DNA of 62,985 nucleotides, the filler included, from Collodictyon triciliatum (Eukaryota): the NCBI GenBank assembly GCA_043381765.1. It is 6 parts of 6 records of this genome, joined end to end, with 100 filler letters (N's around TTAATTAATTAA, not from the genome) between each part and the next. Parts side by side here need not be neighbours in the genome. Positions count along the whole stretch, not along the records: positions 1 to 12,065 come from JBHJMP010002249.1; 5 more parts are not named here. One strand, 5' to 3'. The number at the start of each line of letters is the position of its first letter. Positions within the stretch are counted from its first letter, which is position 1. This document shows, in pieces, positions 1 through 48,403 of the stretch. Position numbers and translations under genes: made by a program. The notes beneath the pieces are model-generated. The model did no database searches, was not told the origin of the DNA, and saw only the letters and a program-made list of their open reading frames with translations.

Positions 1-170
1 AAACAATAACAAAAAACAAAAAAACAAAAAACAAAAAAACAAAAAACAAAAAAACAAAAAAAACAAAAAACAAAACAAAAAACAAAAAAAATAAGAAACA
101 AAACAAAAAACAAAAACAAAAACAAAAAACAAAAAACAAAAACAAAAACAAAAAACAAAAAACGAAAAAC
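1..170. repeat. (CAAAAA)n-like low-complexity tract
   Basis: Directly visible; ends just before a CTGCAG acceptor. Confidence 0.9.
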
Positions 171-180
171 ATCCTGCAGA

Positions 181-3100
181 ATGCAAACAAACCCAACGGA
201 CCTCACTGCTTGCGGAATCCCCGAGCGCCTTGTGATCGGCGTCGACAAGACCACGGAAAGCGAAACCCGAGTCTACACCGAATGCACACTCAACTTCGGC
301 ACACGACCACGCGTGGTTGTGAAGCAGTATAATTACAACGCACTGTTTGACGTGGCCGTAGACATTGCCGCTGTCCAAAAGGACCTGACGCAGCTGATTC
401 TGCTGGAGCCGCACGCCAATCTCGGCCGCTATATGGGCTTCTTTCGCACAACCAAGCACATCTACTTTGTGCGCGAGTATGTGGACGGCATCCCTTTCAC
501 AGACGCCATCCCGAGCAACCGCTTCGATCCTCCTCTGCAAATCAGACTTTCTCTCCAGATTGCCCGCGCGGTCGACTATCTGCGCAAGGAGCTTGGCACA
601 ATCTTCCCCGAGGCTTCCTTTTGTGACGAGCCTATTGAAGCACACAACATCATCTTCGTGCCCAATACCGAGTGTGCGGTTCTTGTGGATTATCAACTCG
701 TCCCGCTGCGCGATTCAGTCCGCCGTAAATGGGACTCGCTCAACAGAGCAACAATCGGGCTGCCCATGTATCCGGCAGAGTATTTCCGCCTAGGCCATTA
801 TGTCCCGGAGAAGAGTGTCATGTTCTGCGTCGCCCTCGTGTCTTACATGATGGCCTCTTCAAACATTCCGAAAATCCGCCGCTTCAAACCGCCCACAAAG
901 TTCTCTGAGTCTGATGCCTACTGGATTCGTATAAAAAAGAACTTGGCCGATGATCCTGCCAACCGCGACAATCTGGCTGACTGGATTAAATTTCTGGAGC
1001 AGCTCTACCAGGTGTGTTCTTGTATACTTGTCAATATCTTCCTGTCTTTATTTTTCGGTAAAGGATGCTATTCATTCATTTGAATGGAATCGTTTCACCG
1101 GCTCTCTGTGCTGAATGGGCCTTTAAGCCCATCCTATCTTGTTATCAGGAAGCAAACAAAGAATTGTGCATTCTGACAATATCCCATTAGGAGCGAATGC
1201 CCTCATACGTAAGAGAAACGGACATGCAGAATATGCAATTGTCTTGTGCCGTGAGAAGCAGTCTTCATGATATTGTGGTAAGCTTCAAATATCAATCGCC
1301 CCTAGGCTCAATTTGTAGAAGCATGTTCTATATATATATGAGTTCCTTGAGTATCTCTAATTTTAATTATGTTATTTTGCAACCAAAAAATAAAATAAAA
1401 TAATTAACGCCTCAAAACAGAAAGAGAATTCAGAGCCGGGTATGGTATTTTCATTAAGATAAATTAATTTACTCAAATCATAATATCATTGGTGTGGCTC
1501 CTTTTTTTTTTTTTCTGGGTCTGTCAATTTCCAACTACTCGTTATATGCTTCCATAAACCTTCTTTCTTATAACGTTTCCCTCACATTTCGCTCCAACAG
1601 AATTCAAGAGAAAGTAAGTTCATTCTCATCACCCAATCCGTTTTGTTATTGTAATGCAAATTAATCATACAAAACTCGGCCTTAAGCGATTTAGAAGAAC
1701 TAGTAACGAATTATTCGATTTACTTCAGGTACTTCATACTGAACCCAAAGGTCGACCTTGGTGGTCTTATGTCCTTGGGCCCACATTTTAGTCCAGAGGA
1801 AAATCTTTTGAAAGCCACTCGACTGAGCATTTCAGGCAGGAGAATCCACACTCTTCCCAACGAACTCTCATTCTTGAAGGTCCTTGATGGGCTAGACCTT
1901 AGCAAAAACGAGGTATCCATGCTAAAGCTTCAAATTCTTTTCTTTCCTACCTTGTTTCTTACGATGAACACTGAGATATTTGTTTGAATATCTCTCCTTT
2001 TTCAATTGTGTTATTCCTAAATCTGAATTTTTGTGCTAATAACTTTATACAAAAACTCTGATGCACCAGTTTACCAGAATTCCGGATAGTCTTAAGGAGC
2101 ATAGTGCCTTGAAAGTATTGAACATGTCTAGTAATAAGGTTTCCTTTTTTTTTCTATCTATATATCATCTATCTTTTTATGAAATATCTTATGTATGCTT
2201 TGATATTATGTTCACGAAATAAAAACAACAGTCAAGTGGATGCTATTCCGCCAAGCGAGGCTGTGAACCATCATTTAAAAAACCCAACGGTGTCACCATG
2301 CACTAAACCTATTCCTTGAATATTAACAACAAACCAGATTCACGCAATGTATGCCTTATGTGTTCAGTCAATATCCTCTGTTACGAAACTAGACCTGTCA
2401 AACAATAAGGTGTCATTCTATTTTATCTTCTAACCTGCTGTATATTTTTGGGCTATCCTTTCCAACCAACAAAAAAAAAATATTGCTACGTGAACTTATA
2501 TGTATGAATAGCCATTCACTTAAGATAAAAAACCAATTTTAGATTTCGACGCTACCAGCCGATATTTCTTCATTGTCTACCCTGAGAGATTGGACTCTCG
2601 CAGGGAACCAGGTAGGTCTTGTATTTAAGCATTCCGTCGCGTTGTCATTTGCATAGCGCTTCCCTTTGTGCTGAGATGCTATTCTGCAGATCAAAGATAT
2701 TCCACCTGGAATCTCGAAAATCACAAACCTACGTAGATTGGATGTATCCCGCAACTTCGTGAGTCTCGTTTTTTTTTCTTTGAATACCGGTTTAGTGAAA
2801 GCTTGCACCCAATTTTCCTTTCTTTCCTTTTTTTATTTAACTCACTTGTATTTTTAATTCCCCTCAAAGTTAACACATAATTATGTTAGATATCTAGCCT
2901 ACCAGTTGAAATCTTCCAGTTGACCTTGCTTGAATGCCTCCTGATTCAAAATAATCCTGTGTGTGTTAGCATGCCCGTTTTGTTGAATTGTTTAGATATT
3001 TCACAATACTCTGAATTTTCGCTTGTTTGCTTACACTTGTAACGCAGGAATCATCGCCATAATTGTTTTTAGATTGATCTCATTCCAAGTGAAGTCCAGT

Positions 3101-6100
3101 TTCTTGGAAGGCTTCGAGATTTGACAGTATCCGAGAGTGGTCGCCCTTCCCCACTCTTGATACATAAAAATGTAAGGAAACTGCCTTGCTGGGAAACGCT
3201 GAAGTTCTCATATGACCCACAGGCTACTGGCGTTCTTAATGGACGCATATCATTCATTTTATTTGATAAGGTGACTTTATGTTACATCACAGTTTTACGA
3301 TCTGTGCAAACGAGAACCAAAACCTTTCTATGAAAGCTATGTGAACGTTGTAAATCACCCTCCTTATCATTTATTCTCGCCAAATTGCCTTTTCGTTTCG
3401 TGGTAGGTGTTGAAATCTAGACTGAAGCTGGAGCAAATTGGTTTGACTGCTTTCAACTTCACATCCCTCGCTGCATCTTATACTTGTTCTCTATATATCG
3501 AACACTTGTATTCTATCTAATGCTGACGTTCGAATCTGTATAGCGTTGAAGCTTGAGTACGAGCGAGGGGATATCGTCGACGTTTTTCTTGACGATCAAG
3601 ACGAGTAAGATAAATATTATCTATTCTTGATGTCAACTTCTAACTTTTTTTAAAAAAAAGACTATGGTGTGCTATTAAACTGCTTTTTTCCTTTTATCTT
3701 TTCATTTGTATTCAGATGCTCGACCGTGTTTCATCATTGATAATGCCGCTTTAACATAAACTATTCCTTTTTTTTTTATACTGTTTCTATACATGTCGGT
3801 TGTCTCACAACATTTATCACAAAAATTAGAACATCGGCTGTGATTCTAATAAAACAAAGTTTTGTAAGAGTTGCTCGGTCGTCTCTCTCGCTGATTCCTG
3901 TCGAACTTGAAAAAGAGGAAATTAAGTGTAAGCAAACAACCACCCCAATAATGGAAAAAAAAAACAGTTATTTTAAAATTAACTTTCTATGTCATCTTCG
4001 TACCTCTTTAGCTCACTTGACCGAAGATTTCTGACAAATATTCCTCTTTTATTTCTATTTCTATCGCATAAATAAGGTTGGAATCTCTACAAACAAAAGC
4101 GGCTGCAAAGCTCCGAGAAATTCCCTTCAAATACAAATACTGGCCCACCAAGTAGTTTTTCAGTTAGCGGCGGACCGTCTCTAACAGCAACTGTCGCTCA
4201 TCAAATGCCCATCGGTGACAATTAAATTGCATCATATTATTCATTACCATGAATGATATCACACTGTTGATTTATGATGTCTGATTCAAATATTTGATTT
4301 GAATGTAAACATTACTCTGAAGAGAAAAAACTCCGTTTTTCTATAGACTTGGAATGGATTCAGAGAAGAGTCCAGGAGGGAGCCGTTTCGGAGTTTTCTA
4401 AACCGTCTGAAACCGTTCGAGAGCCCGTAAAATTTCTTATCGATTGTTTAATGTCCCGAATTACTTATTTAATCAAACTATAAACGCATCATCTTATTTG
4501 GCTTCTTTACTTGTTGAAATGTATTGCTGGAAATATTTAAGGGGTCTTTCTTTTTCTTTTTTTTTTTTTTGAGAAATATTTGTGCGGTTTACTCTTCTTT
4601 TTCTTTATGGCGATTTCCCCGATATACAATCACTGCTTTGCTCAAATCATGCACTTAAATCTAGCTACAAGGTGGTGAGGTTTTGAGTCTGCTCGCTTGC
4701 TTTCGTGGAGTGTTCTGTGGACTCTGCATGGACGTTCTCAAAGATCCGATGGCTTTGCCATGTGGTCATTCGTTTTGCTTTTCGTGCATCGAGACCAGTA
4801 TGAATCAAAATGATGACGGCATCCTATTATGCCCTTATTGTCGCAAAAACATTATCACCAGCGACACAGTAGTAGAAAACTTTGAGAGGCGTCCGGTAGA
4901 CCAACGCTTGTTGGATGTCATATTATCTGTTGCCACGACTGTTCCGGATGACAAATACCCATTTTCATGTCAGAGCTGTGGATGTCCCAAAGCCGCCGAG
5001 TTTTATGGCTCCGATAAGTTGCTTAAGTGTAGTAGTCACAAAGTTTTAGAGAGCGAAGAAAGCTCATTTACCATTCTCTCTGGCCCTCCTGCGACGTAAG
5101 GCTTTTTTTCTTTAAAGCTTTAAACATCAGCAACGCCATTTAGCTCGTCCAATCAATTTTATTCATTTCCTTTTCCTTTTCCTTTTCCTTTTCCTTTTCC
5201 TTTTCCTTTTCCTTTTCCTTTTCCTTTTCCTTTTCCTTTTCCTTTTCCTTTTCCTTTTCCTTTTCCTTCATTCAGTTACATGCAAGTAAATTCATATAGC
5301 CTCGCTCATTTTCATTATTTCTTCTCATGCATACAATCCTTTTTTTCTCTCCCATTCCTCTTTCAAAAGAAAAGTGATCTCTTCTTGGAGCAAATTTAAT
5401 TCATCTCACAGCAGTGGCTTTTCTATGCAGGCCATTTCTTCTTCGCGACCAGAAACTTGCTGATTCTGCACCGAATATGGAGTGCCCAGTCCACAAAAAG
5501 AGCATCGTCAAATTCATTTGCCTTAAATCTCCAGAAAATCCTTTCAAATGTGACCTATGCTTTTGCCCAAACGACGCAGACCACCGAGGACCTGTCCACA
5601 TCCACGGAAATGAAAACATCATTCGCCACATCAAGGAAAAAATGCTACCGAGGCTCAAGCAGAAAAAGGATGAAGTTTACGTAATGAAGGAAAACATAGA
5701 TGCACAAATGAAAAAGGTATTTATGTACTTATTACTCCAGATTATTTTTTTTTTTGTATTTCCGCACGCCAGGTCTTAATGTGTTGAGCTGTAGTATTTC
5801 TTTCCTTTTTCTTCTTCTTCTTCTCTGCTGTCTTTAATACAATAACCAGTATTTCAAAATTCGTCATAAATCGACACATATTTGTATGATGTGGAGAATA
5901 TTGTAGAGATACGAAGAAGTCGATCATGATTTTTTATATTCTAAAAAGAAAAAGACTTATGAAAAAAGAAAAAGAAAAAACGTGACATACTAGAGAATAA
6001 ATCATACATATTGTTCTGCCCAAACAGAGCCAAAACGACCATTATGAATCCTCTGGAGCCATTCGAAGACAGTTTGAAGAGCTGGAGAATAAACTCCGGG

Positions 6101-7608
6101 CTGCCAAGGAGACGATCGAGACAGACGTAAAATATATATATTCCTTTTCGTCTTTTAAACAACAGAATACCGATTTAAGGAACTATGATACGCATACACC
6201 CATTGCTCATCATGAACTGCATACGATAGTGTCGACATCCTCACAAGAAATAGAAATTAAAAAAATCATAAAGAGAAAAAGCAAGAAATCCAAGCATAAC
6301 TGTATATGAACATAATCACATAAACAACAAGCAACACCTGAAAACAACAACGGACGCTGTCATAATTAACGCATTCCAACATCCCACCAGATGAAACGCT
6401 CAAGCGAGCTACTGGTGAAGCCGTTGAAGATCAAGCACGACGAGCTGCATCTGGAGCTGAAGCGCCTGGAAGTTGCCGAGAGTCTCATCGATTCGCTGAC
6501 AAACACACCTGCAGAGCGCTTCATGTTTGCCGACCTGAAGCACGTGTACGAGTACGTGCAGAGCAACCTGGCATCGCACCCGCGAGTCTCTGTGCCGGAG
6601 CCCTGCCAAGTGGTTCTGAGCCTGTCGCACAACCTGCTGGACGAGCTGGAGAAGCTCAAGGACTTTCTCTGCGGTGTCGTCCCCGAAAACCGGTGGCGTG
6701 TGGACAAGGAGGGCGGCACAAAGGGCGATTGGCAGCCGCCGCAGAGGGCCTTGACACCCTTCAACCTGGCCCAGGCAAGGCCCGTGCACGCAATGCAGAG
6801 AGAATACCCGCGGGCAGGCGCCCGAGCCGCAAACATGCTTCGCCGGCCGAGCGACATCCGCGTGCATCCGCTGACACATGAGATCTACGTGGCGGACGAG
6901 GAGGCGCAGCAGCTGCTTGTCTTCGACCGCGACCTGACGCTGCTGGCCACGCACGCAACCGGGCTGGGCCTGCAGAGGGCGCATCACGGGCCGAGGGGCC
7001 TGGCCATCTCCCGGGGCGGGCAGCACCTGGCCGTGGCCGACTACGGCGGCAACTGCGTCAAGATCTACAACGCAGACATGGTTCTGACGCACCGGATCGG
7101 AGGGCCGTTTGGGAGCCGCGCCGCCAGACTCTGCCGCCCGTACGCGCTGGACTACGACCACCTCGAGAACCTCTATGTGGCCGACTCCGGAAACCAGCGG
7201 GTGGTGCAGTTCAGCAAGAAGGGCGCGTTTGTGCGCACGATTGGGGAGCCGCACAGCCTGAATCTGGAGCCGCACGAACTGGCCATCGGCGTGGCCGTCA
7301 CGGAGGCCGGAGACGTCCTTGTGCTCTACGCGGGGTCGGGCCGCGTCGGCGTCTTTGGCTCGGACGGCGCGTGGAGGCGCTTCATCCCCGTCGTGCCGAC
7401 CAGCAGGGACGGCCGCTCGTCCATCTTCTGCAAGGCGGGCGGGCTCTTTGGCATCTGCGAACACAGCATCGGCTTTGTCGTGCTCTATGACATGGACGGC
7501 TCCGTCCACGCCGCACTCCCGCTGGAGGGCTGCATTGCCGCCTGCTTTGCGCCCGACGGTGTGCTCTATGTTGCAAACTCGCAGACAAGGTCGGTTGCTG
7601 CTGTCTGA
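181..7608 (+). CDS. Multi-exon pseudokinase-LRR-RING-B-box-coiled-coil-NHL protein (TRIM-NHL-like with long N-terminal extension), ~1,379 aa from ATG 181; 5' end may lie upstream
   Basis: Phase-consistent GT-AG exon chain: 181-1011, 1191-1277, 1601-1613, 1695-1912, 2070-2138, 2338-2409, 2543-2611, 2690-2758, 2890-2958, 3073-3270, 3407-3440, 3544-3604, 3830-3927, 4077-4214, 4347-4426, 4665-5095, 5431-5716, 6028-6126, 6391-7608. Kinase-fold motifs (VVVK, HANL..Y.G, FVREYVDG, LQIARAVDYL). LRRs (ISTLPADISSLSTLRDWTLAGNQ). C3HC4 RING (CGLC..PCGHSFCFSC..CPYC). B-box (CPVH..C..CDLC..H..H). NHL repeats (PRGLAIS, PYALDYD..LYVADSGNQRVVQF). CTGCAG acceptor at 178-179 suggests exon 1 could be internal. 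Confidence 0.75.
5168..5268. repeat. (TTTTCC)n intronic microsatellite
   Basis: Perfect hexamer run inside intron 5096-5430. Confidence 0.95.
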
Positions 7609-7673
7609 GCGCAGAAGCATTAAAGCAAGGTGACCATGATGATGATGATGATGATGAAAAGTGGCGCATATTA

Positions 7674-9410
7674 TTTTTTTTCTGGTTTCTTTTCTACTAA
7701 TAGTTTATTGAGAGAAAGCAAAGCCGAGGAAACCGCCTTTTGCCTCTAGGACAAGAAATGAGCTGTGGACTAGAAAGCGGAAAAACCAGATTGTGAGGTC
7801 GGAGTTTTTGTGTCTTGGGAGAAAGAAATATATAGAAAGGAGAGAAAGTATTCTCACACGCAGACTATTCTACCCGAGGTGATCAATTCCAACGCGATTT
7901 CTGGTTGTATTCGAGACTGACAGAAGAGCGGATAAAGTTGTCGGGTCGATGAAAGTACGCACATGGCAGTAACTTCTAAAATCGATTTCGACGAGTCCAT
8001 TCAACCATCTATCTCAGACAAAGTTTACATCCTATTTCATTCCACAGGATGAGTCTTTTGAGAGAGACATCGGGTCACTTTCCTTGCATTTCTTGCTGGG
8101 CGACTCTGACAAAAAGTGATACATCGTTGTTTGTCTGGTATTATCGGAAGTGGCGCTTGACCGTCCCCTGGTTTCGGAACCATGCGTAGCCGGCAGTGGA
8201 CTTTGCTTAACCGGAGTATGGATACGCGTTTGTGGTTTTAGAAACATACGCTCCTGCTTGCTCGGACTGTCTTTGGTTTGTGAAGTTCCAAGCTTGGATT
8301 CGACTTGTGCTGTTTGCTCTTGCTCCTTGGTTCTCGGTGCGACGGGCTGGGGCAGGGTAAACGGACTATCTTTGGTGGGCGCTGATTCTTGTGTTGGCTT
8401 CTCTTTGGAGTATCCTTTCGGATAAGTAACGAAGACTGCCTTGAGGCCTCTAATGTTAACCAAATTCACGTCAGTCTGAATGGGTAGTTTTAGGAGGGAT
8501 TTCTTTCGGGTTTTGGAGATGCACTGCTCTTGGGTCTTGCGATGTGCGACTTGTCCGGTGTTGGCGGTGGAGGGCTCGAGTGCGAGGATTCTGAAGAGGA
8601 ACCGTGATTTCCTTCCATCTCATCGTCGCTGTCGCTGTATGCGCGTATCTGCTGTTATTCTTGCGGACTCTATTGTTGACTGGCCTTGACTATCTTGAAT
8701 CCGTTGCTGCTTATCTGCTTGGTGGGTGTATTCTTTTTGCGGAGTTTTACTTGTCGTTCGCTGTTTGCGGCTGGTGGACGCTCTTTGAGGATGCGCTTTG
8801 GAAACTTTTTGCCCATGACCGTAAACTTTGCAGGGAGCTGGTTCTTGTGATAAAGAAGCTTCACCACGGCCGTGTCTGTGAAGGAGCCTTCGTCTTTTTT
8901 TATCTCCACGTGGGTCGGTCTGAACGGTTTCAGCTCCTCACGAATAAGTTGCGGCCACACGTCCAGCGGTAGTTGGTAGAGAATCATCAATTTTTATGTT
9001 GGTTTACTTTTGCTGAAGCTGATTGTAATATCGATCAAACTTACCTGCTTCAGCTTCAGAAGCTTTCGGGCGTTTTCTGCAATGCAGAAGGCAATCAGAC
9101 AAAAGCCTTCGCTGTCTGGTAAGCGCAATTGTATGGATTCTTCCCAAAGTTTGTTCGCTTTCAAGGAGGAGGCGAGCACATCTGTGAGCCTGCGGGCCTT
9201 GTTCTTATTGTTAACGATTTCCTCGACCCCGTGCAAAAATACTGTCCGATCAGACAGATTTGCAGGCGGCTTCCTTGCACGAGTCTTCCTAGACTTACGT
9301 GCAACTCGGGGGTTTTCCGCACCAGCGTTGGAACCAGAAGAACTGGCTGTGATGTGCGAAGCTTTGACAGGTCTCGGCTTGCTTCATCCAACTGACGCGG
9401 GCGGAGGCAT
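7674..9410 (-). mobile_element. Decayed non-LTR retrotransposon ORF1 (two-RRM gag-like) relic without a visible ORF2
   Basis: Intronless minus-strand frame from ATG 9410 reads through in-frame stops at 9386-9384 (TGA) and 8996-8994 (TAA). RRM-like motifs RTVFLHGV / GFCLIAF and LMILYQLPLDVWPQLIREELKPF..AVVKL..LPAKFTVMG. A frameshifted low-complexity tail follows. Minus-strand AATAAA (7709-7704) precedes an A8 run (7681-7674). No TSD identified. Confidence 0.55.
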
Positions 9411-25174: not shown

Positions 25175-27994
25175 TCAATACGAATAAATGGTCGACCTGG
25201 ACTGGCTAAAGACAACAAGCCTATCGCTGGAGTCAAACATGCATTCTGACGGATTTCCCTCCTCCATTACCTTCTCTACTTTTCCATCCGCTGTGATGAA
25301 GCGAATGGATGACCTAGTGGAGTATGCGTTTGCATAGTCGCACATTATTAACCCACCAAACGGCCCCCTCTCCAAAAAGGTCGGTTCAAACAGCCCAACG
25401 TCGACTGTGTACAGCAACGAAAAGTCCAGAGTCGAGCGGATGCTGATGAACCCCGTCTTCTTGCGGTAGATAGCCAGGCAACCGAGACTACCCAACGCAA
25501 TACTCTTGATTTTGTGCTCCGGCGCATCAATTACGCAATCACTCAATTTCTTCATGACATTTCCCTCTCGATCAAGTTTCCAGATGTCAGAGTTTGAAAG
25601 GCTTGTGATAAATAAATTCCCTTCCTCACAAAAGACATGGCTCGTCTGGTCATTGTGCAATAGATTGGTGGACCGGTCCATCTTCTTGATCACCTTTTCT
25701 TCATGGTCGATGAGGACAAACGATTCATTATGAAGACAAGAGATAACGGCGACCATTCCATCGACTGAAAATGATATCTTTGAGCAAGCAAATCGACTTA
25801 AGAACCACCTATCTGTCTCGATTAATCGAATAATAGAATCACCACTTTCATTAAACACAAAAATACTTCCCGAACCAAAGACAGTGGCATAAATTTGATT
25901 CGTTTTTGGATTGATTGATATGTGATTGATTCTATCGATGAGTTTTCGTCCTGTTGGGTCACGATTGATGTTTTTTAACGGGAATTCAATGGAATCTGGT
26001 TCGTAGATAACTTTGTATTTTCGAATAACTCTCAACCGAGAGGATGTAACACAGAGATTATCATCTTCGTCAAATACAGCACAATAAGCCCAATTCAACG
26101 AGATATCTCCGATAAGTGCTCCAGATTCTCTATAAAACGAAAACCTGAGGGAGTTTGATTCATACAAAAAGAATTCACCAGACAAACGAAAACCAACCAA
26201 AGGACTTGAGCGAGGAGGAACCATTAGAGTCCGCAGCAGAGATCCCGTCGTTGAGAATACCAATATCACTCCTTCACCCTGCACAGTAACATAAAGTTCA
26301 TCCATTCTATTGACAGCAATACCATGGAATTTGTATTTTAGTTGGTCGTCCCCAAGCCGAACTGATTGCCCAAACGCCATCAATAATCTGCCTTCTCGAT
26401 CGAATTTTTGAATCCGATTGTTTTCAGTATCTGCGACATACATATTACAAAGCGAATCAAATGCAATTGATGAGGGTAGGTTGAATTCTTGATCTTCATT
26501 TCCCTTTGCGCCTTTTCCTAGGACAAAAATCACCGCATAATTTTCATCTAAAGCAATTATCATATGATTATTGCTATCGAGGAGAGCGAGTCTGCGGCCA
26601 TCCTTTGAAAAGGCCAAGACAACCGGACTGAAGGATTTTATGGATTTCCAATAAAGTTCGTCCAGGTGATCTGTCTTTCGAAAAAAGGAGCTCATGCGAT
26701 TATGTTTCTTTCTTTTCTGACGAATCCATTCATCAATTACCTCCATAATATCGATATCTCCGCACGGAGATAATTCTTTGTCAAAAATAAGAAGTTTCCT
26801 GGCCTCCTCATCTATGGCATGCAGCTGCTTGTTGACGGGATGAACAGCAATACCTGAAAGTGTTCGGATTGTCTGGTGTCTGGCCGACTCATTTACCAAC
26901 GTAGCAGTGTTTATGTTGCGTGTAATGTGATGCAGACCGCAAGAAACATTTGCGAATCTTTTCTCCGCGTGTTGGTCCTCACCGCTTGAAGTGTTGGCCG
27001 TGTTTTGGATTTTCGATAAAGTAAAGTGGATTTTCATTGGATTCGTCGGTATTTGAAAAACTGTCCTAGAAATGCTACTTAGTTGCTTTAAAATATTCAA
27101 CCGGCTGTGCAGTTGAAATACCACCGACCCGTCGACATTTGAAAGATCCTTGTATCTTTTTGTAATTCTCTTGATTTCGTACAACCACAATGGCACATGA
27201 GCGTGAGAGTGGTACACCTTTGTAGCTTTAGATCGAGATTGACCGAGCTGAAACCAGGTAAACATAAACAGAGAAAACCATATGATCATTAAAATTGATG
27301 AATAAATGAACAGAATTGAACAGAATTGAACAGAAAAAGAAAAGAAAAAGAAAAGAAAAAGAAAAGAAAAAGAAAAAGAGAAGAAATAGAAAAGAAAAAG
27401 AAAAGAAAAAGAAAAAGAGAAGAAAAAGAAAAGAAAAAGAAAAGAAAAAGAAAAAGAAAAAGAACATATAATATATACATGCAATTGTTGGATATTTAAT
27501 GGTGCATGCGACAATGAGCAAAAAAAAGAAAAGAAAAGTAAAACCAAAGTTCAAGAGCAACGTCATATAGTTATGTTGTGTATTATCTAACCTCACTCAA
27601 GGTGCGCTGCTCTCGTCGGTCAAGCACCGATACCCTCTCCTCAAATAAAGAGACTATCAGCGCATCCTTTCCCTCAAAGTAGGCAGTGATCTGAGTCCGT
27701 ACACAATATGAAAACTTGACACATACACACAAACAACAGATGCACATTCCTCATGTATTGTCTTGTGACGGGCACTCCGCGCAACACAACGCCAGTTCAT
27801 TGCAAATAAGCTCTGTCACTCGAGAAGGGGTATTATGCTTTTTTTTTCTTCTCAAACAACCCAAACAAAAAATGGCAGAGAGAGGCTTACCTGGTCGATC
27901 GCGTCTTCAAAACGACTGTGGTGGCCCGCTTTTGTGTTGGGTGTGCTTGCGGTGTGCATGTTGCAGGGTAGACTTACGTGTGTTGCGTCGATCG
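25175..27994 (-). CDS. Coiled-coil plus tandem NHL/beta-propeller protein (5' end unresolved, runs toward the gap at 28315)
   Basis: Large exon ~27250-25175 with NHL repeats (FNLPSSIAFDSLCNMYVADTENNRIQKFDREGRLL, HGIAVNRMDELYVT) and a second, more divergent repeat set. Upstream exon ITAYFEGKDALIVSLFEERVSVLDRREQRTLSE resembles a TRIM-type coiled coil. The start of the listed 790-aa ORF is intronic repeat. Confidence 0.75.
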
Positions 27995-28217: not shown

Positions 28218-28314
<97 letters not shown>

Positions 28315-29103
28315 NNNNNNNNNNNNNNNNNNNNNNNNNNNNNNNNNNNNNNNNNNNNNNNNNNNNNNNNNNNNNNNNNNNNNNNNNNNNNNNNNNNNNN
28401 NNNNNNNNNNNNNNNNNNNNNNNNNNNNNNNNNNNNNNNNNNNNNNNNNNNNNNNNNNNNNNNNNNNNNNNNNNNNNNNNNNNNNNNNNNNNNNNNNNNN
28501 NNNNNNNNNNNNNNNNNNNNNNNNNNNNNNNNNNNNNNNNNNNNNNNNNNNNNNNNNNNNNNNNNNNNNNNNNNNNNNNNNNNNNNNNNNNNNNNNNNNN
28601 NNNNNNNNNNNNNNNNNNNNNNNNNNNNNNNNNNNNNNNNNNNNNNNNNNNNNNNNNNNNNNNNNNNNNNNNNNNNNNNNNNNNNNNNNNNNNNNNNNNN
28701 NNNNNNNNNNNNNNNNNNNNNNNNNNNNNNNNNNNNNNNNNNNNNNNNNNNNNNNNNNNNNNNNNNNNNNNNNNNNNNNNNNNNNNNNNNNNNNNNNNNN
28801 NNNNNNNNNNNNNNNNNNNNNNNNNNNNNNNNNNNNNNNNNNNNNNNNNNNNNNNNNNNNNNNNNNNNNNNNNNAACAACAAAAAACAATAAAAAAAAAA
28901 AACAAAATAAAAAAGAAAAATTGTAAATAGAAGATACATAAGGACATTAGCAAGAGCAACTCAGAAGGGAGAAAAAAGAAATTAACTATCGCACGAGTTA
29001 AGGCGATTCCATTCCTCTATTTCGTAAGCCTTCATTTTAAAGAGACGGAAGTTAGAAACACATGTACGCCTCTGCAAATTCAGCAAAATTGCAGCCAGAA
29101 TCA

Positions 29104-43082: not shown

Positions 43083-46000
43083 CTGGATGATGACATAAAG
43101 CAAAAAGAAGAGCAGAGTTGGTTGTGAGTAAGGAACGACCGTTATCACTAAACTGAAGAATAATCGCCTCAGAAGTACGACACACTCCCACTGGTAGCAT
43201 TCCTTTTGGTACGAAAGAAAAAAGGAATAAGAAAATAAAAAGAGCTATCATGTGGTTTAATATAAATGAGTATCATTTTGCGATACACAGAAACCCGACT
43301 TTACCTTCCTGTAGGGCAAATACAGAAACCCATAGCTATCCTCTACATCTTCATCGCCAAACTTTTCAAAAAGCTTTTGAAGATGAAAATAAGTCCATAG
43401 TGGAAGACCGATTACAAATGCAATCAAAAACAAGACTGCTATTGTGAGGATGTGATCAAATTCTGGTGTGGAAGGCCGGCATTGGATCCAGGGATACATG
43501 TTCAGATACCAGTTCCCAGTTCCTGGGTCATGAAGGGTACATCCGATGGCACCGAAGGCCACTCGGCTGATTCCATAATATATTGCGTAGATGCAGAATG
43601 CAGAAACAAAAACTACCTATTGATGTTTTTTTTTAAAAAAAAAAAAGGAATAAAAATCATGCACCAGAAAATATAAGCATTCAACATATGATGAGCTCAT
43701 TTTGTTTATTTTTCAAGCATCATGTCCTTCATACTTTGTTTTTGTTTTTCCCTGGGACACCCCTCCAGAACAATATGGCAGTGGCCAATATGCACGGAAA
43801 TCGAAGCAGATAAATTAATATAGTAGTTTCTGTGGAGATGTCTCCTACGATACAATTCTACAAGAAACGGAGAGTAAGATAGATGGGACAACTATGGAGC
43901 AATTTATGACGGTTGTAATGCCTACTTATTGAACTATTTAATATAAAAGCAAGAGATAACGAAACAAACCAATGCAGGAAGCATAAAGCTGGACGAAACG
44001 AAGGCAGTGTCAACGAAGGAATTCATTCCGCTGCCCAAATCAAGAATGGTTGATGATAGAATGGAAAGGGTCTGCATGTGAAAAAGGAATATCTTGATAA
44101 CCCCTGCGTGAAGAAACAATAAAGATTAGATATCATATCAATAGTGAAAGAGATAATGAAAAGAGAAAGAGGAATAGGTTGTGATATCATTTTCGAAACA
44201 AAAGTGTGGCTATCTGAGTGAAGTAATTACCGGTATTTTTTGGTGGTGTTGTTATCAAGTACCATAGCAATAAGATCATTCCAAGTGGAAACAGAGTCAG
44301 AACTACAGCTGTAGCGTAATATGGGCATTCGGCACACTTTCTACCTTGTTGTTGATATCCTGACTCACAGCGCGAGCACAACCGGTCCTTAAATAAACAA
44401 AAATTGTAAGTTGGACTCCCTTTTATAAACTAGCCACGTTTCAAAGGTAAATCATTATGCCGCACAGCTTTAGCAAAAAAGTGAAACAAATGGATGGCGA
44501 ATGAATGAGCATTAAATATGATAATACTAAAAAAAAAAAAAAAAAAAANNNNNNNNNNNNNNNNNNNNNNNNNNNNNNNNNNNNNNNNNNAAAAAAAAAA
44601 AGATTGTTAAATCTGAGAAAACCCATGAACAGTTGGGCAGCATACTTACTGAATGGCCACTCTTGCAAGCAAATACTTCTCTATTGTTGGGGTTACATGC
44701 TGTTTTGTACGGACAAACTAACAACTCAACAGTTTTAATGGCGTTGTTTGAAGCGAAACATCCTTTCAAATGGGTACTGCCGGAGCATTCGCATGGATTA
44801 TCACAATGTATGCATTGGCTTCCGACTCCAAAGTAATTCGGTAGACACTGACAAAAAGTATCGTTATAGTAAGAAGAGTCCATGTAAACAACAAGGTTTG
44901 GATTTTCAAGGCCGACCACCAATGGGCAGTAATAATTGTCATCTTCTTTACTTTTTTCAAATGTATTTGATGCTCCCAAGAAAGATGGAACTGGGTACTC
45001 TTTCTTGTTCGACTTAAGAAAGGTGCTACTAACGTCCAAGACTCCAAGGTTTGAAAATAAAGAATAAGTTTCTGGTACGATTCCTTTGATTGGATTTCCG
45101 GAAACATTTAATCTCTCCCACCCCGAAAAAATTGGCAAGTCATCTAGAGATGTTAGCCTGTTGTTGGCCAGGTTAATTTCTCTTGCTTGGAAAAAGAAAT
45201 AGGGGATGTAATAGTTCAACGAGCCAAATAGTTTGTTATCTTGTAAATGGAGAAAATACAAGTTAGATATGGCTTCTTCCTGGGCCACTGGTATGAGAAA
45301 TGACACAATATCCTCTTCAATATGGTTATTACTTAGGTCTAGATTGATAAAATTGGGTAATTGCAGAAAGAATGGCGGTGTTTTTCCTCGAATTTTGTTA
45401 TTTTTGGCAACAAATTCGAGCAAATTAGATAAAGTCGAGGCGCTTTGTGGAATATTTCCTTCAATTTCATTGTTTTCAATAATGAAGCTTTCAAGTGAGG
45501 CCATCCCCAAGAAGGAGGGGAGATATCCGGTCAATTGGTTGAATCCAATGTCGACGTAATAAAGCTCGGGAAGAACCCAGTTCGGTATGCTTCCTGTGAG
45601 TTTATTACGAAAGACAGAAATTTTTCCCAGTTTTAAGGATTTCGAAAAATCAGGTAGCGACCCCTCCAGAGCTGTTTGTTGTATTTCCAAGGCTGCAAGG
45701 CTTGGCAAGTTACTAAAATTTGGAACCGTACCATAAACAGCTGTTTGATACAAACTCAATACCTCCAGCTTGGGGATGTTTTTAAAGTCTGGTATTTGTC
45801 CTGAAAGCTTCGTCTGGAAAGCCCGGAATGAACGGAGATTGCTTAGATTGGTAAAATCCGGTATTGTGCCCGAGATGTTGCATGATACAACATACAAGCT
45901 ACTTAAATTTGGAAGGTTCTTGAAATTCGGTATAGTTCCAAAGACTGCCAAGTCAGCAAAGTACAGGTGATTCAAAGTTGGTATATTACTGAAGTCTGGT

Positions 46001-48403
46001 ATTGTTCCTCCTAATCCACAATAGACAAAATAAAGTTGGCGAATATTAGGCATGTATGTGAAGTCGGGTATGGTACCGACTAGATTGTTTCGCACAACAT
46101 AGAGCATTTGAAGGGACGGAAGTTGGAAGTCCGGAAGGGTGCCATGTAGGCTCGTCTCGTAGATGAGAAGTGTTTCAAGCAGCATAAGATTGAAGTTTGG
46201 AATTGTTCCAGAGATAGGATTCTGCTGCAGTAAAAGCATGGTAAGTAAAGGTGTGTTGTTGAAGTCTGGTAGAGTCCCAGATATCGTGTTCGCACTAATA
46301 TCGAACAAAGATAGATAAGGTGTCATACTGAAGTGTGGTATTGTCCCATTCAAGCGATTGCTAGCTAACCTTAGGTAGCGTAAATTCGGGCTATTGGCGA
46401 AGTTGGATATCGTTCCCCATAATGAATTGTATGGAGCAAGAAAAACAGACAACGAAGGACCTCCAAGTGGGTTAGGAATCGAATCCGACAACATGTTATT
46501 ACCAATATCGACCACTTGGAGTAAAGGGAGGTCGGTAAATTTAGGAAGCATCCCAGAAAGTTCATTGTCTGATAGGGAGAGTATCTCAATAAGTGGATAT
46601 TGATCTATGGGTGGTATTGTCCCTGTAAGTCGGTTGCTTCCGAGAGAAAATGTGACCAAGTTGGGCAGGATGAACTTTGGAATATCACCAATCAACTGAT
46701 TTCCGGATAGCGAAATGGTATTCAGCATGGGAGTGGATGTGAAGTTTGATAAAGTGCCGTATAAGCGATTATCATGCAGCGCAATAATGGCTAGGGCTGG
46801 ACTATTGAACTGCGGCAGATTACCGATCAATCTGTTATGAAAAGCGGAAAGTGTCCCAAAATAGGGCAGATTGTAATCTGGGACTGTACCATCAATTGTG
46901 TTGTTTTGAACAGAAAGAATAGCCAATAACGGACAACCTGCGAGAGTGGGTAAGGTTCCACTCAGCAGGTTGAGATGGACAGCAAGAACATTGAGTGTAG
47001 GAACACTGTAATCTGGTATCGGTCCTTCAAAAGTGTTCTCAGAAGCACTGAATACATTCAAATTTTGAGACCCATCAAAGGCCGGCAGAGAGCCACTAAG
47101 CCTGTTCTGGTGAATTACAAATTGTTTCAAAAGCGGTAGTCGTATCTCTGGGAGGATGCCAGATAAGTCATTTCCATTTAATACTACCGCTTGAAGCATT
47201 GTGTGATCGAAGGACGATATTGTGCCATAGAGCGCATTGTCGTTGAGAACCAGATATGACAGGTACGGAATTTGTTTCAAATAAGGCTCAATTGAAGCGT
47301 AAGACCCCATCAAGGAGTTTTTTCCTAGATTCAGGGCGACAACCATGCAATAGCCCATCTAATTGAAGAAAATTAGTTACTATGGCTAAATAATTTGATT
47401 TTTTTTCCCCTTTCGATTCAAATATATCGTTTGGATTTGATAGGCATGTAGCGTTAAAGAAAATGAATATGTTTATAGAAAATATATGAGATCAAAAGAA
47501 AAGGAAGAGACAAGAAAGTGGGTAAAATAAAAAAGGATGAGTTTTACACATAGCAAATAACTGACTTGGCAATATCCAGGTCCACAAGGTGCGCAGACGA
47601 CGCCATACCATTCGCAATAACATATTGTTTCATTTCCCCAGTTTGTATTATCCTTCCAATTAGGTCCGTCAGTTTTGTTGTAAATTTCCATCAGCACCAA
47701 GGCAGGGTTTGACAGCTTTCTTCCTGTGATCGACACTACGTTCGGTTCTGTAATGTCTTGTTTTGAGAATGCATTTTGCTCATCTATTCTCTGTCTGAGA
47801 CTCCTGTCATAGAAATCGTCAATATCACTTGATTTTGTCTGTCTCCAGCTGTAGTCTGCATGCGAATCTGGTAAAATTCGACGCGAAACATCAGTTGCTG
47901 TCCTATCAGAATACGGTTGACGCAGACGAAGAAGTAGGCGATGAGAGTCTTCATGGCTCAATGCGATAATATCGCTTGCGCTCATTTTACAGAAGGCAAC
48001 AACATCTTCATATATGAACCCATTCCTTTGGTGATATGATCAGAAATATGATGGTATTTATATAAAAAAAAGTATTCACCAAATAGTACATTGGAAAAAA
48101 ATGTCTGCGATAGAGAAAAAGGATTCTAAGGTATAAAAAAAAAATGTATTATCTAAGAAAGTGTAAGAAGTTTTGACAATCTTTTTGGAAATGTAAGAAA
48201 GTGTAGAGCGATGGCCAACTATAATGAAACTAAACGATCGAGACATACTGGAGGAATGCACAGTAAGAGTTTAGCACGATAGAAACATCTGCATTAGCGC
48301 ACATCGGACCAGCACACAACATTATGATAAGGTAAAGTAGGCTAGTTTTCCATGTCAGCAAACAGATAACAGACATTCGGCTCCGACTATCAGTCGTCTC
48401 CAT
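43083..48403 (-). CDS. Large cell-surface LRR receptor: signal peptide, LRRNT cap, ~30 plant-type LRRs, Cys-rich stalk, multi-pass TM domain (3' truncated)
   Basis: First exon METTDSRSRMSVICLLTWKTSLLYLIIMLCAGPMCANAD. Cap LMEIYNKTDGPNW..NW..CEWYGVVC. One ~2.7-kb exon of LxGxIPxFxxxPxLxxLxLxxN repeats. Cys-rich CQCLPNYFG..CSRCESGY..CAECP. TM exons include GVIKIFLFHMQ, YGFLYLPYRK and WECVVLLRR. Confidence 0.85.

Follow-up and report, generated by a model that had tools for sequence, protein, structure and literature searches.

We analysed 62,985 nucleotides (nt) of the Collodictyon triciliatum genome (assembly GCA_043381765.1), referred to here as the window, and found on its plus strand, between positions 181 and 7608, three blocks of coding exons that are kinase-like, leucine-rich repeat (LRR) and TRIM-NHL-like, respectively. 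The observations establish the domains with their order and strand, the existence of intron 1 and, through the locus, a GT-AG path that stays open. The most probable single parse is a full fusion, in which pseudokinase, LRRs and TRIM-NHL module form one gene of about 1,310-1,360 amino acids (aa) and 17-18 exons, yet this parse falls short of an even chance. The inventory of domains is real and their arrangement is unusual; the one-gene claim itself is unproven, with odds not far from even. The window as a whole, eukaryotic DNA rich in AT, has introns of the GT-AG type and also contains microsatellites and assembly gaps.

With a GT-AG intron at every junction, the locus gave a stop-free model that codes for 1,356 aa in 18 exons with a total of 4,071 nt (Table 1). 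An earlier note on this DNA had claimed one stop-free frame of 19 exons and about 1,379 aa; the stop-free frame stood, and no placement was found for a nineteenth exon. The note had also put the RING near residue 720. Its position far from the N-terminus holds in the fused model only, where the first RING Cys is residue 697. The domains claimed on the plus strand were found in their places, with the kinase-like domain starting at ATG 181, LRRs at 1751-3270, the RING at 4716-4841 and the NHL repeats within 6391-7605, and the claimed inventory (a kinase-like domain without catalytic Asp, LRRs, RING, B-box-like zinc motif, helical region and NHL repeats) was borne out. A 13-nt exon at 1601-1613 and an acceptor at 1729 were dropped from the model, as their phases were incompatible with the three possible donors of exon 2.

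Read data were taken from three runs of one study with related sequence, named X1, X2 and X3. The RNA nature of these runs is a guess, and X1 may be DNA. Contigs were compared over 170-5150, of which 2508-4678 had no contig, and run X3 gave no match.

Table 1. Exons, introns and alternatives of the gene model at 181-7608 (acceptor and donor values are splice scores; z is the composition-corrected codon score)
Feature	Position	Strand	Remarks
Exon 1	181-1011	+	277 aa, ATG at 181; kinase fold without Gly-rich loop and without catalytic HRD Asp
Intron 1	1012-1190	+	GT..AG, 179 nt, phase 0; one X1 contig joins 1011 to 1191 exactly
Exon 2	1191-1277	+	short linker; 3' end uncertain: donors 1208, 1250, 1277, all phase 0
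Seven LRR exons	1751-1912, 2070-2138, 2338-2409, 2543-2611, 2690-2758, 2890-2958, 3073-3270	+	phase 0, one LRR each
Putative 34-nt exon	3407-3440	+	phase 0 to 1; acceptor 2.3, donor 3.4; codon z 0.6 (weak)
Strongly coding exon	3544-3608	+	ends at donor 3604 (GTAAGA) or at in-frame TAA 3606-3608
Putative linker exon	3830-3927 (alternative acceptor 3869)	+	phase 2 to 1; acceptor 4.3, donor 2.5; z 0.8-1.0, ambiguous
Putative linker exon	4077-4214	+	138 nt; acceptor -0.4, donor 4.6; contains ATG 4205, candidate start of a stand-alone TRIM-NHL
Coding exon before RING exon	4347-4426	+	no ATG; enters in phase 1; codon island 18.4, z 2.06; acceptor 5.1, donor 5.0
RING exon	4665-5095	+	C3HC4 at 4716-4841, then a second Cys/His-rich stretch
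B-box-like exon	5431-5716	+	Cys/His motif 5483-5605 (C-x2-H ... C-x2-C ... H ... H), start of helical region
Helical/coiled-coil exon	6028-6126	+	33 aa, phase 0; codon island 20.1, z 2.0; AG/GT boundaries
Terminal exon	6391-7608	+	GC 65%; NHL repeats after a helical region; stop 7606-7608

Domains encoded along the locus

Against Pfam Pkinase, exon 1 scored 22.1 bits, which is below the cutoff of 31.7. Among 1.84 billion representative proteins, searched exhaustively, 13 relatives were found at E <= 0.001, four of these at E <= 1e-10, and two of the four closest (P0122 and P0124) were over the Pkinase cutoff with 88-102 bits. The AlphaFold2 (AF2) model of exon 1, made with alignment A1, had a predicted local distance difference test score (pLDDT) of 72.4 and a predicted template modelling score (pTM) of 0.74. 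When this model was compared with the PDB by Foldseek, at least 500 matches were obtained at E <= 0.001, and those among the matches listed were protein kinases with template modelling (TM) scores of 0.53-0.70. In alignment A1 with the active-type kinase P0126, exon 1 had no GxGxxG, its residue in the HRD-Asp column was Pro, and the column of the catalytic-loop Lys was occupied by Glu; a VAIK-like Lys, the catalytic-loop Asn156 and a DFG-like Asp (DYQ) were kept. Because the Gly-rich loop, the HRD Asp and the catalytic-loop Lys are all missing, we named this domain a pseudokinase, and a bilobal kinase fold without the requirements of active kinases is supported for exon 1.

The closest relatives of exon 1 are three open reading frames (ORFs) from the transcriptome of the protist Diphylleia rotans, P0122, P0124 and P0121, with identities of 38, 33 and 27%, respectively (E 5e-36 to 1e-11), and they have C-lobe motifs in common with it. 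At the catalytic-Asp column, P0121 has Pro and P0122 has Asn, so that the residue is lost there as well; P0124 retains an HHD loop. These relatives are either domain-only proteins of 253-255 aa (P0122 and P0124) or a 537-aa protein with an unrelated tail (P0121). Between run X1 and the window, six of the nine differences within exon 1 fell on third codon positions (hand count), which supports selection on this exon. A contig of run X2, from another organism, matched exon 1 at 433-770 with four differences and diverged at 770, midway through the exon.

The only junction with backing from public contigs is 1011>1191. Intron 1 is exactly missing from an X1 contig, which indicates that exon 1 is spliced to downstream sequence, and the intron is real whether X1 is RNA or DNA. 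The three donors of exon 2 scored 6.4 (1208), 6.9 (1250) and 8.0 (1277), all of them in phase with acceptor 1751, and the codon signal of the exon fades past about 1240. The X1 contig was identical to the window in 1191-1240 and showed five differences in 1241-1265, two of the five on third positions (hand count), followed by insertions of 1 nt at 1297 and 6 nt at 1328. Because of these insertions and substitutions, the frame of the exon 2 tail is not preserved in X1. The pattern of X1 fits partly processed RNA and also DNA of a relative without intron 1. At the other end of exon 1, the same X1 contig starts with 24 letters unlike the window, which end at AG directly before ATG 181. They had no match anywhere in the window and may represent a spliced exon of the 5' untranslated region (5'UTR) beyond its left edge. 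The edge itself is an A-rich microsatellite (1-170) just ahead of ATG 181.

At the LRR block, the frame stays open for 542 aa with AG/GT at each boundary. Alignment A2 of its seven units gave the consensus IxxxPxxxxxLxxLxxLxxSxNx with a mean column identity of 47%, and the tandem 22-24-residue units with an LxxLxLxxN core that characterize leucine-rich repeat proteins are present. The coding potential was scored by a codon log-odds model trained on the other exons and introns of the window, in which 60-nt windows averaged -5.1 for introns and +6.1 for exons. Each segment was also shuffled to correct for composition, giving a codon z of 1.0-3.1 for confident exons and of -1.75 to +1.38 for ten non-coding controls. 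The LRR exons had z of 1.0-2.2. Single LRR exons are too short for Pfam, with LRR_14 as the best match at E 0.1. Inside the intron 2139-2337, an LRR-like relic at 2236-2334 shares 30% identity over 33 aa with the beginning of exon 3073-3270. As it lacks an acceptor of usable phase, the relic is probably an exon duplicate that has decayed.

In the TRIM-NHL-like block, the RING exon matched Pfam zf-C3HC4_4 at 1.4e-12 and was over the cutoffs of five more RING models. Its PDB matches, up to 1.5e-9, were RNF168, TRIM31, TRIM30, TRIM5, TRIM25, TRIM21, TRIM2 and TRIM3. A motif scan of the whole window found a single RING and a single B-box-like motif, both at this locus. In exon 5431-5716, no B-box was recognised by Pfam even at E 10, nor was one found among 21 weak PDB matches. 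In Atlas, 21 of the 30 feature matches of this exon were in the zf-B_box set with a top score of 0.90, a recognition below the usual level that is a lead only. The AF2 model of the exon alone was too poor for use (pLDDT 49.5), with low-confidence helices at residues 61-92. The tail of the RING exon (residues 99-115; 4959-5009) and the B-box-like exon (5540-5590) share a Cys-rich stretch with 47% identity over 17 aa, which may reflect two B-box-like units or an internal duplication.

Exons 6028-6126 and 6391 to about 6800 appeared helical by eye. The NHL part of the terminal exon matched Pfam NHL at 4.4e-16 with two stretches over threshold, and its best solved relatives in the PDB were TRIM71 (6.5e-20), then TRIM2, TRIM3 and Thin, with bacterial PknD at just 2e-4. 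Of the features of the TRIM family, the RING is present, and so is the C-terminal NHL of the TRIM-NHL subfamily (class VII / subfamily C).

Some further features of the window were recorded. A second NHL-repeat ORF lies on the minus strand at 25175-27550. It is AT-rich, 791 codons from stop to stop, with a Pfam NHL match of 2.2e-08 and 25% identity over 287 aa to the NHL exon of the locus. No RING or B-box motif was found near it, and there is an assembly gap upstream at about 28300-28870. A separate large LRR gene, also on the minus strand (44527-47358), consists of an intron-free ORF of 943 codons, nearly all LRRs (Pfam LRR_4 3e-34), with a Cys-rich tail. Within the locus, the G+C content (GC) was 0.54 in the first exon, 0.65 in the last one (300-nt windows up to 0.70), 0.36-0.51 in the inner exons and 0.27-0.46 in the introns. 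A hexamer microsatellite occupies 5166-5268, in the intron 3' of the RING exon.

One gene or several

The number of genes depends on the linker at 3271-4346. Its top codon island is exon 3544-3604, with an island score of 24.0 and a z of 4.8 that was reached by 0 of 2000 shuffles. Since this exon is clearly coding and has no ATG, the LRR-side gene extends at least to 3604. The 34-nt exon 3407-3440 was postulated because joining 3270 to exon 3544-3604 needs a phase shift. The longest ORF in the linker spans 96 codons (3744-4034) and includes exon 3830-3927. The codon island of exon 4077-4214 scored 15.5 in the required frame compared to 8.9 and 7.2 in the other two, with a z of just 1.0, and its frame holds 43 open codons above its sole ATG. 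Two routes that keep the frame had been proposed for this part, and both exist: exon 4077-4214 can be skipped, or acceptor 3869 can be used in place of 3830.

According to the earlier note, the RING exon and the exon before it need upstream exons. The frame of the RING exon indeed opens directly after TAG 4662-4664, with the first in-frame ATG only after the first Cys pair, and the frame of exon 4347-4426 has an upstream in-frame stop and no ATG; the stop that had been placed at 4223-4225 is present as well. The need for upstream exons stands only as far as exon 4077-4214. It does not hold beyond, since the in-frame ATG 4205 is found there with a good donor at 4214.

A search for paths through the linker on splice score alone gave many open paths and favoured chains of tiny exons, and it was discarded. 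In the path test, the interior of the linker was shuffled 300 times with dinucleotides preserved, and paths with at most two exons were allowed. The best real path from 3604 to 4347, (3869-3927)+(4077-4214), had a score of 27.4, which was matched by 10 of the 300 shuffles. The phase pair demanded by the flanking exons (2 in, 1 out) was the best of nine, the others scoring 14.8-21.7. The path across 3605-4346 is thus somewhat above chance. The putative linker introns (103-264 nt, GC 0.27-0.38) look like the confident ones (78-335 nt, GC 0.29-0.46). Moreover, a stand-alone TRIM gene would need either a first coding exon of 10 nt (ATG 4205 or 3716) or a poor donor (-3.0, with ATG 4354), which favours the fusion.

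Several observations weigh against it. An in-frame, stop-free path existed in 300 of the 300 shuffled linkers, so that the openness of the spliced frame is worthless as evidence for fusion. The shuffle test reached only a p of about 0.03 and is tilted towards fusion, because donor 4214 would be real under two genes too. The linker exons 3407-3440, 3831-3926 and 4079-4213 had z of 0.6-1.0, and acceptors 3544 and 4077 both scored -0.4. The relatives of exon 1 are kinase-domain-only ORFs of 253-291 aa or the 537-aa ORF, which has no LRR, RING or NHL; in a Pfam scan of P0121, P0122 and P0124, the only three scanned, all three domains were absent. X1 contigs run unspliced through 1278-1371, 1913-1990, 2139-2337 and 2410-2440; apart from the contig spliced at 1011>1191, they are continuous over 1420-1990 and 2134-2440. 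In PMC3503706, TRIM proteins are described with the RING near the N-terminus.

Searches for the same architecture belong to these points. No database protein with the fused architecture was found in single-exon searches, in line with the earlier remark that it is unfamiliar from described proteins; this lack is compatible with a novel fusion and with a wrong join alike. When exons were compared with longer proteins, 0 of 1,573 candidates for exon 1 and 0 of 384 candidates for the RING exon were matched at E <= 0.001. The NHL exon had 597 matches among 8,000 candidates, and the 120 listed were NHL-repeat proteins; those with a source name had bacterial or metagenome names, one had kinase domains, and none of the 120 listed carried RING, B-box or LRR Pfam accessions. 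A metagenome scan with the RING exon found four loci with RING-level likeness only (42-50% over 32-55 aa), two of which (L001 and L002) code for a TRIM-like RING at the N-terminus that is unrelated, and the other exons of the locus had no match to any of the four.

The linker data can also be read as two neighbouring genes on the same strand, an arrangement that we consider possible and rather doubtful. Gene A would encode a pseudokinase-LRR protein of about 574 aa ending at TAA 3606-3608, and gene B a TRIM-NHL-like E3 of about 707 aa starting at ATG 4205, with a 10-nt first coding exon, donor 4214 and then exon 4347-4426; the sequences 3830-3927 and 4077-4204 would be 3'UTR, intergenic DNA or 5'UTR. 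Both reading frames work. The in-frame TAA gives a natural end directly after the last strongly coding exon on the LRR side, and an ATTAAA lies at 3674, 66 nt past it, as one lies at 7619 after the terminal stop 7608. ATG 4205 has a good donor (4.6) and an unusually long leader, since a run of 213 nt without ATG (3992-4204, plus strand) ends there. Gaps from ATG to ATG of this length make up 2.6% in the window, and only 2 of 95 in 1000-6400 reach at least 200 nt, the other one spanning a microsatellite. With so clean a leader, ATG 4205 could be a genuine initiation codon. The weak codon signal of the linker exons and the absence of a TRIM part from the relatives of exon 1 agree with two genes, as does the position of the RING, whose first Cys would be near residue 48, close to the N-terminus as in the TRIMs described in PMC3503706 and PMC2533329. 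However, two genes require the 10-nt first coding exon, and the 43 codons above ATG 4205 are open in the frame with the best codon score of the three. The TAA lies within a perfect GTAAG donor, and any GTAAG donor in phase 2 brings such a stop with it. Furthermore, the in-frame path through the supposed intergenic DNA has the right phases and beats 290 of the 300 shuffles, and the GC of 3609-4076 is 0.31 and intron-like, compared to 0.41 in the sole known 3' flank (7609-8031; n=1, a weak comparison).

At the 5' side, the question is whether exon 1 belongs to the LRRs. It is unlikely that exon 1 with a short tail in 1191-1404 forms a separate small pseudokinase gene and that a second gene starts at ATG 1769 with the LRRs, the LRR gene then either ending at 3606, giving three genes in all, or continuing into the TRIM-NHL module. 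Such a separation would agree with the 253-291-aa relatives, which in the alignment end together with exon 1, and with the in-frame ATG 1769, a plausible start of an LRR protein with 112 ATG-free nt ahead. Moreover, the X1 contig that is spliced at 1011>1191 continues unspliced past 1208, 1250 and 1277 to at least 1371. However, the tail has no codon signal past about 1240, its frame is lost in X1 through the substitutions and insertions described above, and each of the three donors, all strong (6.4-8.0), fits acceptor 1751 in phase. If X1 is DNA, as it may be, the unspliced stretches are uninformative.

A decaying or non-functional arrangement, for instance a recently juxtaposed TRIM-NHL copy or relic LRR exons, with no stable product of the fused kind, is highly improbable. 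The LRR-like relic in intron 2139-2337, which fits no phase, and the sharp GC contrast of the end exons (0.54 and 0.65) with the inner ones (0.36-0.51) could be explained in this way. However, every domain exon is open and has codon signal, and where X1 differs from the window within exon 1, third positions are mostly affected (six of nine).

Taken together, it is quite probable that the pseudokinase is joined to the LRRs, and there is a little better than an even chance that the LRR half continues into the TRIM half, which leaves the full fusion somewhat below even.

Possible function and comparison with known systems

In the fused product, an N-terminal pseudokinase would be followed by about seven to eight LRRs, a linker of about 140 residues from short exons, and a TRIM-NHL-like E3 module comprising the RING, the B-box-like zinc motif, the helical/coiled-coil region and an NHL beta-propeller. 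The pseudokinase would serve as a scaffold or binding module rather than as an enzyme. By analogy with established RING E3 ligases and TRIM-NHL proteins, the RING would recruit a ubiquitin-charged E2, the helical region would dimerise the protein, and the NHL propeller would bind the target, which may be protein or RNA. This biochemical reading of the RING, helical and NHL parts would be the same under every parse. In the fused parse, the half with the LRRs and the pseudokinase may provide a second recognition or regulatory surface, comparable to the LRR in LRSAM1. A role as sensor-effector or in innate immunity is at most a reasonable guess.

If the fusion is true, it is an undescribed build of a ubiquitin ligase, in which one RING is wired to a dead kinase and to the LRR and NHL as two independent modules of recognition, and it would naturally be considered as a cytosolic sensor-effector of a microbial eukaryote. 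It would represent a new receptor-plus-E3 architecture and would place a TRIM-NHL module outside animals. That a eukaryote other than an animal has a protein with a pseudokinase, an LRR array and a complete TRIM-NHL module, in which some 700 residues precede the RING, can be put forward tentatively, at well under an even chance. Even as two genes, a gene with RING, B-box-like motif, helical region and NHL would bear on the origin of the TRIM-NHL family, because its NHL is closest to TRIM71, TRIM2 and TRIM3 while the relatives of exon 1 are protist. PMC2533329 (2008) names the B-box as the family-defining TRIM domain and the tripartite motif as exclusive to metazoans. Table 1 of PMC3503706 (2012) gives the range of the TRIM-NHL subfamily as 'Animals', with only the TRIM37 group being eukaryote-wide. 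A literature search of incomplete coverage found no later reports of protist TRIM-NHL proteins.

The animal TRIM-NHL proteins (TRIM71/LIN-41, TRIM2, TRIM3, TRIM32/Thin, Brat and Mei-P26) have the same order of RING, Cys/His zinc motif, helical region and C-terminal NHL as the locus. In contrast to them, the B-box-like motif of the locus is unrecognised by Pfam or PDB sequences, no filamin domain was seen, and in the fused model the RING stands far inside the protein instead of near the N-terminus. ROCO/LRRK-type proteins likewise combine LRRs and a kinase-fold domain in one gene, whereas at this locus the LRRs come after the kinase-like domain, which is without the catalytic Asp. The defining features of ROCO/LRRK proteins are the Roc GTPase and COR domains between LRR and kinase. 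No unassigned long coding island that could hold Roc-COR was present in 1-7800, and Pfam gave nothing relevant on the linker exons, so that the locus does not belong to this type. LRSAM1 has a SAM domain and a C-terminal RING, and it carries no B-box, NHL or kinase-like domain. [quoted passage not shown] Compared by description only, it resembles the fused reading of the C. triciliatum locus, in which LRR recognition and RING ubiquitination would likewise be combined in one polypeptide.

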